Assembly (NCBI GenBank): GCA_016707525.1
Contig: JADJHP010000001.1
Location: forward strand, 702,103 to 766,102
Direction: 5' to 3'
Length of the DNA stretch: 64,000 nt
Source: Ignavibacteriota bacterium
Lineage (GTDB): Bacteria; Bacteroidota; Ignavibacteria; UBA10030; UBA6906
Shown here: piece after piece, positions 14,087 to 60,259 of the stretch
Position numbering within the stretch: position 1 is the first letter of the stretch
How the letters are laid out: each line of letters starts with the position of its first letter
Position numbers and translations under genes: made by a program
The notes under the pieces: generated by a model
Told to the model about the DNA's origin: nothing
Database searches by the model: none
The model's input: only the letters and a program-made list of their open reading frames with translations

Positions 14087-16002
14087 CTATCCGACGGTGA
14101 GTGAGGATGAGGGATGAAGGACCGAGCGGACGACCGCTGCGATCCCGGGGCCATCCAACCCGAGTTCATCAGCAAGTTCCGCAGGAGATCCGTGGTCTAC
14201 GAAACGGTCAGGGATGCCGTGCATCGTAAGGCGGGTACCCGCATGACCGGCTGCTGCGACGAATTCGCTGACCGCGCCGCCAAATCCGCCCAGGACAGAG
14301 TTGTTCTCGACCGTGACGATGGCCTTGAACCGCGAGAGAATGTCGTCCAGCAACGCCCCGTCCAGCGGCTTCACAAAGCGCATGTTCACGACCTCGCATT
14401 CGATGCCTTCATGCGCCAATGCCGTCGCCGCCTGCAACGACGGCGCAACCATGTCTCCGATCGCCAGGATCGCGACATCCTTCCCGGTCCGGAGGATCTC
14501 CCCTTTGCCGACCGGCAACAATGTGAAATCCGGCTTCAGGGGCACACCCAGACCGTTGCCGCGTGGATAGCGTATCGCCACCGGCCCGCCCGTATGCTTC
14601 ACGGCGGTGTACAGCATGTCCCGCAATTCGCTCTCATCCTTCGGCGCCATGATCACCATGCCCGGAATGGGGCGCAAATAGCTCAGGTCGAACACGCCGT
14701 GATGCGTCGGGCCGTCGGCCCCGACCACCCCCGCTCGGTCAAGAGCGAAGATCACGTGCAGATGCTGCAACGCCACATCGTGGATGATCTGATCGAACGC
14801 ACGTTGGAGGAACGATGAGTAGATCGCAACGATCGGGATCGCACCCTGGGTGGCGAGTCCCGCAGCGAAGGTCACGCCGTGCTGCTCCGCGATCCCGACA
14901 TCATAGAAACGTTCGGGCATCTCACGCTGCAATTGGTCGAGGCCGGTCCCATCCGGCATCGCCGCGGTCATCGCAACAAGGTTCGGTGTCTGCCGGGCAA
15001 GGTCGACCACCGCGGTACCGAACACTTTGGTGTACGCCGGCGGCCCGCTGGCTTTCTTCGGCGACACGCCCGTCACCTTGTCGAACGGTGTCACACCGTG
15101 CAGCCGCTGTTCGTCCAGCTCGGCGGGACGATACCCCTTCCCCTTCTGCGTGATCGCATGGACGAGGATCGGTCCCGACAGGTCCTTCACCTCCTGAAAG
15201 ATACGGACGAGCTGCGCCATGTTGTGGCCATTGATGGGTCCGAAGTATCGGAAACCCAGGGCCTCGAAGAGCATGCCCGGCGTGATGATGACCTTGATGC
15301 CTTCTTCGAGCCGCGCCGTCACGCGGCGGATCCGGTCGCCCCACTGTCCAGCTTGCCCGTGAGATCGTACACATTCTTCTTGAAACGGTTGTAGCGCGGA
15401 TCGGCGATCAGCTCGGTGAAATAGTTCGAGATCGCCCAGACGTTCGGGGCGATGGACATGTTGTTGTCGTTCAACACGACGATCATGTCCTTCTTCATGA
15501 AGCCGGCATTGTTCATCCCTTCATACACCATGCCGCCGGTCATGGAGCCGTCGCCGACGATCGCCACAACTTTGTACTTCTTGCCGGACGTTTCCCGTGC
15601 GGCGACCATACCGACGGCGGCCGAGATGGCCGTACTGGCGTGGCCAGCACCGAAGGTGTCGTATTCGCTCTCCGAACGCTTGAGGAAGCCGCTCAGTCCG
15701 TTGTACTGGCGGATCGTATGGAGCCGGTCCTTGCGGCCGGTGAGGATCTTGTGCGGATAGGCCTGATGCCCGACATCCCACACCAATTTGTCGTACGGTG
15801 TGTTGAACACATAGTGCAGGGCAACGGACAACTCCACAGCGCCCAGACCGGCACCAAGGTGCCCCCCCGTCCTGGAGATGACCTCGATGAGGAATTCCCG
15901 CACATCGTTGCTGAGGCCTTTGAGTTCAGGGACCGTGAATCCGCGGAAATCCGCGGGCACGTTCACCCTGTCAAGGTACGGATATGATTGCTGACCGCTC
16001 AT
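14087..16002 (-). CDS. dxs: 1-deoxy-D-xylulose-5-phosphate synthase, interrupted by a 1-nt frameshift near 15320 (N-terminal 227 aa and C-terminal 411 aa in different frames).
   Basis: N-terminal ORF has the TPP-binding region GHLGAGLGAVELSVALHYVF and GDGSMTGGMVYEGMNNAG. C-terminal ORF (GTG start overlapping the first ORF's TGA) carries the transketolase pyrimidine and C-terminal domains. Both parts belong to one Dxs. Confidence 0.8.
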
Positions 16003-16244
16003 TCCTGTTCTTCATCCATCAATGTGAGTTTCCCGTCGAGGTCCTTGTTCAGCTTCTTCAGGGTCGTTTCCGCGCGCGTAAGTTTCTCCGCGCAGACCCT
16101 GGAAAGCTGGATCCCTTCCTCGTACAGGCGCAGGGAGTCCTCCAATGGAACATCTCCCTGCTCCAGCTGGTTCACAATTTCCTCCAACCGGTGCAAAGAT
16201 TCTTCGAACGAACCCTTCCCGGCGGCGGGCTTCTTTCCGGCCAT
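15999..16244 (-). CDS. xseB: Exodeoxyribonuclease VII small subunit.
   Basis: 81 aa, SFEESLHRLEEIVNQLEQGDVPLEDSLRLYEEG matches the XseB family. 4-bp overlap with dxs. Confidence 0.85.
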   Translation of the reverse strand: MAGKKPAAGKGSFEESLHRLEEIVNQLEQGDVPLEDSLRLYEEGIQLSRVCAEKLTRAETTLKKLNKDLDGKLTLMDEEQE

Positions 16245-16245
16245 C

Positions 16246-58100: not shown

Positions 58101-58680
58101 GCCGGATGGTGGCTTCGCGGTCGATCCCGTGATCCTGGATCTCGATGTAGAAGTCGTCACCGAAGATCCCCTTGTAGATCTCCGCGGCTTCGAGGGCCTC
58201 CTGATCGTTCCCATTCGCAAGATGCGCTGACACCACGCCGCCGGCACACGCGGAAAGCGCAATGATCCCCTCGCGGTGCCGCCGGAGCACTTCCGTGTCG
58301 ATCCGCGGCTTGTAGTAGAATCCCTCCAGATGCCCTATCGAGCACAGCTTGATGAGGTTCTGGTAGCCCGTCGCATTCTTCGCGAGGAGGACGATATGAT
58401 GATATGCTCCGCGTCGCCCGCCGCCTTCCGTTTGCTGCAGACTTTTTTCGAGACGGCTCCCCTTCGTGACGATGTACGCTTCCATCCCGATGATCGGCTT
58501 GATCCCGGCCTTCTTCGCCTTCTTATAGAATTCGAGGGCACCGAACATCACGCCGTGATCGGTCAGCGCGATCGCCGGCATCCCGTCGGCAACCGCAGCA
58601 TGGATCAGATCATCAATGCGCGTCGCCGCATCAAGGAGGCTGTAGTGAGAATGATTATGAAGGTGGACGAACGTGCTCAT
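55150..58680 (-). CDS. dnaE: DNA polymerase III alpha subunit.
   Basis: 1176 aa; N-terminal PHP domain (HLHNHSHYSLLDA); polymerase core and OB fold. Confidence 0.9.
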   Translation of the reverse strand: MSTFVHLHNHSHYSLLDAATRIDDLIHAAVADGMPAIALTDHGVMFGALEFYKKAKKAGIKPIIGMEAYIVTKGSRLEKSLQQTEGGGRRGAYHHIVLLAKNATGYQNLIKLCSIGHLEGFYYKPRIDTEVLRRHREGIIALSACAGGVVSAHLANGNDQEALEAAEIYKGIFGDDFYIEIQDHGIDREATIRQKAPALARKLGLKLVATNDIHYMKQADAIAHNVLLLIPDSTGGGTTDYTQLRYQTDQAYFKTSKEMAELFKEWPDAIGNTLEIAEKCNLELKLGENHMPKFPIPEEAGVETLPEYFELLARQGFANRYPGATEAMKDRLDHEISVITKMGYSGYFLIVADFIRAAREMGVAVGPGRGSAAGSIVSYALGITNVDPLKYDLLFERFLNPERVSMPDIDVDFADEKREQVIQYVRDKYGAESVSQIITFGTLSARAVLKDVGRVLGIPLSTVESVTKLIPVEQGKVRPLKEAIETIPELKWVKDSDDPKIRTLVEVSLTLEGLNRGAGMHAAGVVIAPGVISDYVPLYRTPQTEVMTQYNMKDLEAAGLLKMDFLGLRTLSVMENALRMIRENHGVTIDLDTLPEDDADTFALFTRGDTVAVFQFESSGMRDWMRKLKPTCISDLVAMNALYRPGPMEMIGDFIARKHGQQKIVYPHPKLEPILKETYGVIVYQEQVMKIASEIGGLSLAKADLMRRAMGKKDAKLMADMKKEFVDGAVRLEVPKKAAEDIFDLIEKFAKYGFNKSHSVAYSVIAYQTAYLKAHYAAEYMAATLTSEIGDTDKIVPLIDDCRRAGIRVLPPDINESGKDFTVVGGVIRFGLVAIKGVGGSAIETVVAARVNEGPFTNIYDFCRRADLRLVNKKCLESLVQAGAFDSTGGGRAQVFESVERAMQYGQSMQAQAERGQDSLFDMPGTSTKPELSAPQLADVPSWPEMEKLAREKSVIGLYVSGHPLLKFEREVEEFANVRLGDPSGFTNLAGVRACGIITAIRRKVDKRNNTMAFVTIEDFSGKADCIVFSDPFTKFQSIIQPDAMVMVAGKGELNGDALRIIVTDVFPIEKVREKFARSVILSLHVDAVQDQTIKELRSLLEQHRGNCPCYLNVQGLPAPQMFAAPRYGVDPSVRFQEAVTRVLGTDAVRFVGEVQTSQEKSGKSNETYRRHRQHV

Positions 58681-58838
58681 TGCGAACGGTTCTGTGATAG
58701 GACTTTGCTCATAGTATCAACGTCGTCAGGGAAAGTCAAGGAGCCCGGGCGGGAAGTTGTGAACAACTTTTGCAGATGATCTTCAACACACGAATGCCGG
58801 CAGAGCCGGCATGAGGCAGCGTGAGATAACGTGATGTT

Positions 58839-60259
58839 TCACCGGGGGTTGACAGCCAGGAGCTTACGCTCCGTCATCTCCTCCATTGCATAGCGCACGC
58901 CCTCCCTGCCGAACCCGGAACCTTTGACGCCCCCGTACGGCATATGATCCATCCGGTATGTCGGGACATCATTCACGATCACGCCGCCCACTTCCAGTTC
59001 TTCGAATGCGCGGAGCATGTGCCGGAGATCCGGAGTGAACACTCCTGCCTGCAATCCATACATCGAGTCATTGACCCCCGCCAAGGCCTCATCGAACTCC
59101 GCATACGATCCGACAGTAACGATCGGTGCGAACACTTCCTGAGAGCATACCTTCATGTCCGGGCGAACGTCCGCAAGGATGGTAGGCTCCAGGATGGCGC
59201 CGTGTCGCCGTCCGCCACATAACACTTTCGCACCTCCGGCTATGGCCTCTGTGAGCCATCCCTCCGCCTGTTCAGCAGCCTGCGCGGTGATCATCGGCCC
59301 CACCACGGTATTCACATCCCAGGGGTCGCCGGTTGCCAGGGCCTTCACCTGCGGGACGAGCAGCCCGAGGAATTCTTCTTCGTGCTCCCGGTGCACAAAC
59401 ACCCTCTGCACGGAGATGCAGGATTGGCCTGCATTCGCAAAACCGCCCGCAACCACCTTCCCGGCAGCGAACGCAAGGTCCGCCCCCCGATCAATGATCA
59501 CTCCGGCATTCCCGCCCAATTCCAGCGTCACCCGTTTCTTGCCTGCCCGGGACTTCATCGGCCAACCGATCGCAGGACTTCCCGTGAAGGTGATAAGGGC
59601 AACCCGTTCATCTTCAATGAGTTGACCAGCTTCATCTCCCGCGCAGGGTAGCACTGAAATCATCTCCACAGGAAGGCCACTCTCCAGAATGATCTCCGCA
59701 AAAGGAGTGCCGTCCCGGGCGCGTTCGATGATGGCTTCACCACCACAGGGTTCCCTGTGGCAAAGGCCGGGGCCGCCTTATGCGCCACGAGGTTCAGGGG
59801 GAAATTGAACGGCGTGATGGCTGCGATGGGGCCGATCGGGAAGCGCTTGACGAGGGCGAACCGCCCGGCGGACGCCGCATTCATGTCGAGCGGGAGCATT
59901 TCGCCGTAGATCCTCCCCGCCTCCTCCGCCGCCGTCCGGAATGTGAACTCACTCCTATCGACTTCCATCCTGGACAGCGTGATCGGCTTGCCGGTTTCCC
60001 GGGTGATCATCGCAGCGAGTGCCTCCTTCCGCGCCCCGATGCCCCGCGCGATGGCATAGAGCGCATCCACGCGCTGATGGCTGGCGAGGCTGCGCGACGT
60101 CCGGAATGCACGCACGGCACCGGCGAGGGCGTCGTCAATATCCCGCTTCCCCGCCTGACACACCTCTCCCGCCACCGATCCGTCGAAGGGGTTGAGCACC
60201 GGGCGCGTGTGCGCGGTGGTGCGCCATGCGCCACACACCAGGATCGGTCGGGCCCCCAT
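58839..60259 (-). CDS. Aldehyde dehydrogenase family protein, frameshifted near 59690..59710.
   Basis: N-terminal ORF (VLNPFDGSVAGEV...PVVVKPSSNAPGTALLL) and C-terminal ORF (EMISVLPCAGDEAG...ELGGNAG...GQSCISVQR catalytic Cys...) are contiguous ALDH sequence in different frames. Confidence 0.7.

Follow-up and report, generated by a model that had tools for sequence, protein, structure and literature searches.

Are the broken reading frames of several conserved housekeeping genes in the 64,000-nucleotide stretch of DNA analysed here (the window) mutations of the organism or errors in the sequence deposited for it? A preliminary description had listed at least six single-base frameshifts, in dxs, an FG-GAP repeat protein gene, two LolC/E-type permease genes (lol1 and lol2), pckA and an aldehyde dehydrogenase gene (ALDH), and had attributed them to sequencing or assembly error left standing in a metagenome-assembled genome (MAG) built from long reads or at low coverage. 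This attribution is supported by the technology behind the source assembly, by the private nature of the indels and by the purifying selection acting on the affected genes. On sequence comparison, the frameshifts, which now number seven, are most probably indel errors that survived in the consensus of a metagenome assembled from Nanopore R9.4.1 reads at low coverage, and not mutations of the organism, a reading to which we assign a probability of roughly 0.92.

Source of the sequence

The window is part of the MAG Ega_18-Q3-R5-49_BATAC.118 from Danish activated sludge (JADJHP000000000; Bacteroidota, class UBA10030, classified under Ignavibacteria in the study; Singleton et al., 2021), and nine of its proteins are identical to NCBI proteins within MBK7256805-833. 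The MAG was assembled from R9.4.1 Nanopore reads with CANU 1.8, followed by Racon, two rounds of medaka (r941) and a single round of Racon with Illumina reads (PMC8012365). The entry for this MAG in Supplementary Data 3 of that source gives depths of 11.92 for Nanopore (npcov) and 10.16 for Illumina (ilmcov); the values supplied there also include a polymorphic rate of 0.0415 (4.15% of sites, where the mean over the study is 2%) together with a CheckM strain heterogeneity of 28.6 (PMC8012365). The window comes from an assembly of error-prone long reads for which little depth was available for polishing, and a caveat on residual indels was also stated by the authors of the MAG (PMC8012365). The source organism is free-living and has a 5.2-Mb genome.

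Frame-breaking indels in seven genes

For comparison, 31 conspecific contigs assembled from short reads were aligned to the window (98-99% nucleotide identity, 227 kb aligned). They stem from different samples or strains (divergence 1-2%) and together span 52,032 of its 64,000 nucleotides. Alignment to these contigs fixed the indel positions and revealed seven genes with one frame-breaking indel each, 2 bp long in one gene and 1 bp in the other six (Table 1). All six genes listed previously are indeed disrupted and continue in another frame, as borne out by the sequence, by split Pfam matches and by the repaired lengths. A gene for a 206-aa hypothetical protein joins them as the seventh, and not every event is single-base, two bases being lost from pckA.

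Table 1. Disrupted genes and related features of the window, with the number of same-species contigs that span each frameshift site, all of them intact.
Feature	Coordinates	Strand	Length (aa)	Lesion or site	Intact contigs
dxs	14087..16002	-	638 repaired	1 base missing after 15346 (GG->G)	8 distinct
CcmF	18582..20408	-	608 (versus 688)	240-bp in-frame gap at 19812	
FG-GAP repeat protein	24718..26941	-	740 repaired	extra C in run 26396-26402 (C7 here, C6 in relatives)	9 distinct
206-aa hypothetical protein	29276..29895	-	206	1 base missing after 29628 (CAG[G/T]ATC in relatives; GG or GT->G)	6
LolC/E-type permease 1 (lol1)	31127..32357	-	409 repaired	extra C at 31335-31338 (C4 here, C3 in relatives)	9
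LolC/E-type permease 2 (lol2)	32358..33574	-	405 repaired	A missing at 32550-32551 (AA here, AAA in relatives)	5
prfB (RF2)	33576..34686	-	369 repaired	programmed +1 frameshift site CTT TGA C at 34614-34620	
pckA (ATP-type)	43797..45435	+	546 repaired	2 bases missing at 45178-45181 (ACAC here, ACACAC in L097)	1
Intergenic extra G	53097	.		14 nt upstream of the htpX start, within a SNP-dense patch	
Aldehyde dehydrogenase (ALDH)	58839..60259	-	473 repaired	1 base missing after 59699 (CCGC[T]AAAAGG in relatives)	4

Repair of a single indel restores the exact length found in relatives, with no internal stop, in dxs, the FG-GAP gene, lol1, lol2, pckA and ALDH. Without repair, the Pfam match is split at profile positions 206/219 in dxs and at 178/185 in ALDH, is cut at 66-73 of 120 in both FtsX-type permeases (lol1 and lol2) and is lost after 438/465 of PEPCK_ATP in pckA, while the FG-GAP repeats are spread over two overlapping ORFs. 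The reading frame of the 206-aa protein falls into two ORFs (29581-29895 and 29276-29584), and its halves carry the accessions MBK7256808.1 and MBK7256809.1; the 206-aa form occurs on many contigs. The truncated 356-aa product of lol1 (MBK7256813.1) is found on the source contig only, and the 358-aa product of lol2 (MBK7256815.1) belongs to a cluster whose remaining members have 405 aa. No protein accession lies between MBK7256822 and MBK7256823, at the position of pckA, which is consistent with this gene having been called a pseudogene.

At each of the seven sites the gene is intact in every same-species contig that spans it (Table 1). On the + strand, for instance, the dxs site reads CACTG/TCCAG in the window, the slash marking the missing base, and CACTGGTCCAG in relatives. 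A sister species (84% identity) is likewise intact at the six sites within its coverage, the ALDH site lying outside; it has the FG-GAP gene intact (L032/L122) and two more bases at the pckA site. For pckA, support comes from this species and a single same-species contig. None of the lesions is shared with any related genome or strain examined, all seven being private to one contig. In total, seven uncompensated coding indels were found in the 52,032 compared bases of the window and none in 227,408 aligned bases of the 31 contigs (P ~ 8e-6 for an equal indel rate). Since the indels occur only in the Nanopore MAG and in none of the short-read conspecific assemblies, they are almost certainly consensus errors and do not reflect biology.

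In the two regions lacking conspecific coverage (1-8224 and 41119-44861), neither the alignment to the sister species nor the Pfam matches pointed to further split genes, positions 1-5000 being weakly covered. A Logan contig (L106, SRR11674048), which we guess to belong to the same project as the MAG, is 99.85% identical to the window but covers only 54621-55977, where there is no frameshift site; its run accession does not appear among the supplements of the MAG study. Pattern scans of metagenome contigs for the FG-GAP and lol2 sites, allowing both alleles, gave no match.

Sequence context of the indels

The indels had been described as sitting in GC homopolymers or dinucleotide runs. This holds for the C7 tract of the FG-GAP gene, which had been located correctly, for the C4 tract of lol1, found where it was expected (~31335), and for one dinucleotide repeat; three further sites are runs of 2-3 nt and one has no run. 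The runs of relatives at the seven sites are C6, C3, A3, G2, G2 (or GT), (AC)3 and none. The association with homopolymers and dinucleotides is weak. Runs of at least four are present at two of the seven sites, and an estimate from a run-length census gave no significant homopolymer enrichment (n = 7). Several positions had to be moved: the dxs indel, previously placed at ~15320, falls in the GG after 15346, outside the neighbouring G4 run, as seen in the conspecific alignment, and that of lol2 lies not at ~32565 but in the A run given in Table 1. The pckA lesion, assigned to a cgcgcgc repeat at ~45185, is repeat-associated, but consists of the contraction of (AC)3 to (AC)2 beside GCGCGC. The ALDH site was confirmed close to ~59698, where a lone T is lost beside an A4 run, with no homopolymer involved.

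Among runs of at least five in the compared region, 116 of 117 are concordant with relatives, which indicates that the assembly was largely polished. Around five of the seven frameshift sites there are 0-2 mismatches per 101 bp, not above background, while the dxs indel, the indel at 53097 and the CcmF junction adjoin SNP-dense patches with 8-11 differences in 40-100 bp. A general association of the indels with SNP-dense, strain-mixed patches was considered and rejected: it fits dxs and 53097 and fails for five frameshift sites. The extra G at 53097, the sole non-coding small indel found, may be real variation.

Selection on the disrupted genes

Purifying selection on substitutions is strong: across 46 genes, pN/pS is 0.097, with no nonsense change among 660 coding substitutions. 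In the repaired frame of the disrupted genes it is 0.075 downstream of the shifts and 0.083 upstream; the downstream portions carry 69 synonymous and 15 non-synonymous differences (P = 4e-27 against neutrality), and the repaired dxs frame gives a pS of 0.080 and a pN of 0.007. No gene contains a second lesion or a nonsense codon, each broken gene having a single lesion. The relaxed selection expected of pseudogenes is not observed. Of eight private small indels, seven are coding, which nearly matches the share of coding sequence in the window (estimated at roughly nine-tenths), so that the indels appear blind to selection. The lesions are small indels placed regardless of coding constraint, as in an artefact.

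The prfB and CcmF genes

A programmed +1 ribosomal frameshift at CUU UGA C, preceded by an SD-like element, is a known feature of prfB. The window copy resembles the seven sites in that the frame changes within an essential gene of the same window, but differs from them in its canonical motif, GAGGTTATCTTTGAC, which is conserved in same-species contigs and in more distant relatives, that is, in all relatives examined; the seven sites have neither. Judging by this motif, the prfB frameshift is genuine; of the sites considered, only this one shows such conservation.

The CcmF gap, which had been suggested to share the cause of the frameshifts, is 240 bp long and in frame, and represents a different type of lesion. 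It removes the WWD haem-handling motif, and the resulting 608-aa protein (MBK7256797.1, labelled 'hypothetical protein') is known only from the source contig. The gap adjoins a divergent, mostly synonymous patch; an origin of this patch from the sister species was rejected by direct comparison.

Alternative explanations

Genuine, very recent mutations of the strain, arising by incipient pseudogenisation, genome decay or in a mismatch-repair-deficient mutator lineage, would agree with the presence of the indels in the deposited sequence, with the location of five of the seven in short runs, where replication slippage acts too, and with the origin of the comparison contigs from other samples. 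Pseudogenes of this kind are typical of decaying genomes, such as those of recent host-restricted pathogens or symbionts, and the frameshifted housekeeping genes of the window also align fully to intact orthologues. Nevertheless, such an origin is very unlikely. Seven events in 52 kb would mean that ~15% of genes, including dxs and both Lol permeases, are broken in a free-living organism with a 5.2-Mb genome, whereas the genes display no nonsense codons, no multiple lesions and no relaxed dN/dS, the downstream pN/pS equalling background. None of the lesions is shared by conspecifics, whose short-read contigs have no frameshift in 227 kb; the lesions are confined to one assembly technology, and just this kind of artefact is predicted by that technology and its depth. 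Even less credible is functional recoding or phase variation at some sites, either by programmed frameshifting, of which prfB provides a true example in the window, or by an ON/OFF poly-C switch in the FG-GAP protein, a probable surface protein whose site is a C7 tract. Unlike the prfB motif, which different genera share, the seven sites are not conserved in any relative and have no slippery heptamer or stimulatory element, and the FG-GAP tract is C6 and in frame in 9/9 conspecific contigs (eight samples), C7 occurring only in the Nanopore MAG. It is improbable that a few of the lesions, namely the C6 to C7 change in the FG-GAP gene (as an OFF-phase variant) and the in-frame CcmF deletion, really occurred in the strain; if they did, part of the population would display an altered surface or would have lost the maturation of cytochrome c.

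A possible though less likely origin is that co-existing strains were combined into a chimeric consensus, in which merged haplotypes or mis-polishing by short reads of another strain generated both the indels and the CcmF gap. It is favoured by the elevated polymorphic rate, by the strain heterogeneity and by the SNP-dense patches beside the dxs indel, 53097 and the CcmF junction, but five of the seven sites lie in sequence with background-level mismatches. The outcome would still be an artefact, produced by strain mixing instead of base-calling.

Residual consensus error in a low-coverage Nanopore assembly is the reading we prefer. With ~12x Nanopore and 10x Illumina depth and a 4% polymorphic population, the single Racon short-read round may have left or introduced indels, at a residual rate that would be roughly 1.3-1.5 per 10 kb, breaking about 15% of genes. 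The sites are less homopolymer-bound than is typical of R9.4.1 error, and polishing mostly worked. Gene fragmentation by indels in Nanopore assemblies was reportedly described by Watson and Warr in Nat Biotechnol in 2019. Sereika et al. (2022; PMC9262707) document it for assemblies of R9.4.1 reads and for bins of low coverage. As in those cases, indels of 1-2 bp split conserved genes of a low-coverage (<40x) bin that still counts as a 'high-quality' MAG under MIMAG, and the resulting fragments entered the databases as truncated or separate proteins. In contrast to them, long homopolymers are mostly correct here and the residual errors lie largely in runs of 1-3 nt and in one dinucleotide repeat, a pattern resembling what short-read polishing leaves behind when it is incomplete, and not raw compression of homopolymers.

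Implications

These observations matter in practice and not for biology: consensus error has probably broken about one in seven genes of a 'high-quality' MAG. The MAG is the species representative of its cluster (PMC8012365) and will therefore probably serve as reference genome for the species. Public protein databases already contain the fragments MBK7256813.1, MBK7256815.1, MBK7256808.1 and MBK7256809.1, together with the motif-less CcmF MBK7256797.1. This bears on metabolic reconstructions, pangenome counts and pseudogene surveys, as well as on the other oddities flagged on this contig.

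Frameshifted genes and their intact alleles

The preliminary description of this region pointed to at least six single-base frameshifts in conserved genes, each continued in another frame. The breaks are real features of the deposited sequence, as Pfam splits and three-frame translations reveal the other-frame continuation of each broken protein, and a seventh case, encoding a 206-residue hypothetical protein, extends the list; the indel is 1 bp in six of the seven genes, but 2 bp in pckA. The halves of dxs lie on adjacent ORFs (15319–16002 and 14087–15322) joining at DXP_synthase_N positions 206/219, and those of the aldehyde dehydrogenase (ALDH) gene on ORFs 59660–60259 and 58839–59669, joining at Aldedh positions 178/185. 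In both MacB/FtsX-type permeases (lol1 and lol2, of LolC/E type) the match ends at FtsX positions 66–73 of 120, in pckA the PEPCK_ATP match is lost beyond 438/465, and the FG-GAP repeats are spread over two overlapping ORFs. Large neighbours (DnaE, 1176 residues; a P-type ATPase, 921 residues; AspRS, ProRS and GlnA) are intact. Mending one indel per gene restores the lengths of the relatives (638, 740, 206, 409, 405, 546 and 473 residues, in table order) with zero internal stops.

Scanning GTDB species representatives with AspRS identified a collinear sister-species contig (L032, MAG BIN5), 84% identical to 24769–45425, in which lol1 (409 residues), lol2 (415 residues) and pckA are uninterrupted, each matching the window as two hits in different frames. 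A search with repaired dxs returned 638-residue proteins at 98% identity, and the contigs matching dxs, together with those encoding exact window proteins (LolD, thioredoxin, a thioesterase and XseB), provided 31 different contigs assembled from short reads by SPAdes, MEGAHIT or Logan; wastewater metagenomes are the main origin, and identity to the window is 98–99%. These conspecifics cover 8225–41118 and 44862–64000 (52,032 bp; 227,408 aligned bases in total), over which no uncompensated coding indel is private to a short-read contig; under equal per-base rates, the probability of all seven falling on the window is ~8e-6. The remaining alignment gaps are compensated pairs with a 4-nt spacing (49199/49203 and 63327/63331), an intergenic gap private to one relative (54157) and an alignment-end effect (62617). 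The extra G at 53097, the sole non-coding private indel, is plausibly real intergenic variation.

Private indels and other features of the window, with the state of the indel sites in conspecific contigs
Feature	Region	Strand	Site	Difference (relatives to window) or content	Conspecific contigs
dxs		−	after 15346	−1, GG to G	intact in 8/8 spanning
FG-GAP protein			26396–26402	+1, C6 to C7	intact in 9/9 spanning
206-residue hypothetical	29276–29895		after 29628	−1, GG or GT to G	intact in 6/6 spanning
lol1	31127–32357	−	31335–31338	+1, C3 to C4	intact in 9/9 spanning
lol2	32358–33574	−	32550–32551	−1, AAA to AA	intact in 5/5 spanning
pckA			45178–45181	−2, (AC)3 to (AC)2	intact in the 1 spanning
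ALDH			after 59699	−1, lone T beside A4 lost	intact in 4/4 spanning
Intergenic, 14 nt upstream of htpX start codon			53097	+1 G	SNP-dense patch, 8–10 mismatches per 101 bp
CcmF	18582–20408	−	19812	240 bp (80 codons) absent	present in three (L081, L084, L085)
prfB	33576–34686	−	34614–34620	GAGGTTAT CTT TGA C, canonical programmed +1 site	motif kept
BNR_2 (sialidase-like)	62581–63780	−
Glycoside-hydrolase/esterase block	1–8685			GH38, COesterase, GH43; GC 0.57	replaced in L082

Origin of the frameshifts

Nine proteins encoded in the window have identical NCBI entries in the range MBK7256805–833 ('MAG: ... Ignavibacteriae bacterium'; locus tags IPI01_xxxxx; 844,969-bp contig). The entries for the source MAG, Ega_18-Q3-R5-49_BATAC.118 (JADJHP000000000), in Singleton et al. 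(2021; PMC8012365) give 21 contigs, 5.197 Mb, GTDB class UBA10030 and family UBA6906 (MiDAS class Ignavibacteria), CheckM completeness of 95.6% and contamination of 3.8%, coverage of 11.92x (Nanopore) and 10.16x (Illumina), and a polymorphic rate of 4.15% (mean of the study, 2%). Assembly used R9.4.1 reads, CANU 1.8, Racon and two rounds of medaka, followed by one Illumina Racon round (PMC8012365). Consensus indels of R9.4.1 data give rise to frameshifted gene calls, bins under about 40x need short-read polishing, and MIMAG 'high quality' is reachable despite many such errors (Sereika et al., 2022; PMC9262707).

Of the 148 homopolymers at least 5 nt long in the window, 117 lie in the compared region, where the C7 run is the sole discordant one (1/117); polishing thus largely worked. 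Residual indels amount to about 1.3–1.5 per 10 kb and lie mostly in runs of 1–3 nt, so that their earlier assignment to GC homopolymers or dinucleotide runs is only partly right. A contribution of strain mixture is possible but not general: among the eight small-indel sites, SNP-dense patches adjoin those of dxs and 53097 only. Directly downstream of the dxs indel, eight SNPs in ~40 bp (15300–15345), all but one synonymous in the repaired frame, mark a locally divergent haplotype adjoining the error.

Comparison of 46 genes with conspecific contigs gave 511 synonymous and 149 non-synonymous differences (pS 0.042, pN 0.0041, ratio 0.097) and no nonsense codons. Read in the repaired frame, the sequence 3' of the seven breaks has a pN/pS of 0.075 (69 synonymous, 15 non-synonymous), and that upstream 0.083. 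The downstream value departs from neutrality (P = 4e-27), so that the 'dead' parts have evolved as functional coding sequence over practically the whole of the divergence that can be measured. Unlike substitutions, the private indels are blind to coding constraint, seven of the eight being coding, near the window's estimated coding fraction of roughly nine-tenths. The BNR_2 gene is fast-evolving (pN/pS ~0.32, from 20.5 non-synonymous and 22.5 synonymous differences, versus 0.097 for the window).

The low-coverage R9.4.1 source, the intact allele in every spanning contig and purifying selection past the breaks support the original reading of uncorrected error, and we place the probability that the frameshifts are overall artefactual at about 0.92.

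CcmF, prfB and the variable block

The large lesion in CcmF preserves the reading frame and does not represent a slip. The missing segment, also present in the sister species, includes WGGYWAWDPVEN (WWD motif) and a conserved His; CcmF has 688 residues in conspecifics. Immediately 5' of the junction, a 54-bp stretch (within 19813–19872) has 11 changes, mostly synonymous and mostly GC to AT, and matches neither conspecifics nor sister species. The gap could reflect a genuine deletion allele or, alternatively, an artefact introduced when a region of mixed strains was assembled or polished. CcmF of the sister species (L122, ~5388–7421) has 677 residues, 33 bp being absent from the same WWD region between direct repeats GGGCGGGTAYTGGGCG, which could reflect repeat collapse or real variation; the 'contig_' record names of the L122 MAG suggest a Flye long-read assembly.

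The prfB site, missing from the preliminary list, is the sole genuine frame change in the window. Its motif is kept in conspecific and more distant relatives (product of 369 residues), whereas the seven error sites are not conserved.

The lower-GC block at the start of the window is partly common to sister species L122 (hyp244, GH43 and COesterase), and conspecific L082 (7891–12488) has in its place, from here onwards, a 2338-residue Big_5/FG-GAP/HYDIN-like giant protein; the block is a strain-variable island.

Consequences for annotation

Truncated or split products derived from these errors stand in NCBI nr as ordinary proteins: the permeases as MBK7256813.1 (356 residues; 31287–32357) and MBK7256815.1 (358 residues; 32498–33574), and the halves of the 206-residue protein as MBK7256808.1 and MBK7256809.1. 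The entry for CcmF with the gap is MBK7256797.1, named 'hypothetical protein'. All five records occur on this contig only, with full-length forms on many contigs. Among those looked up, no protein records were found for the dxs, ALDH or N-terminal FG-GAP fragments, and no accession lies between those of the two neighbours of pckA, which is consistent with pseudogene calls. Such frameshifts are already well documented as an ordinary artefact of low-coverage R9.4.1 MAGs, and the value of the finding is as an annotation warning for this contig.
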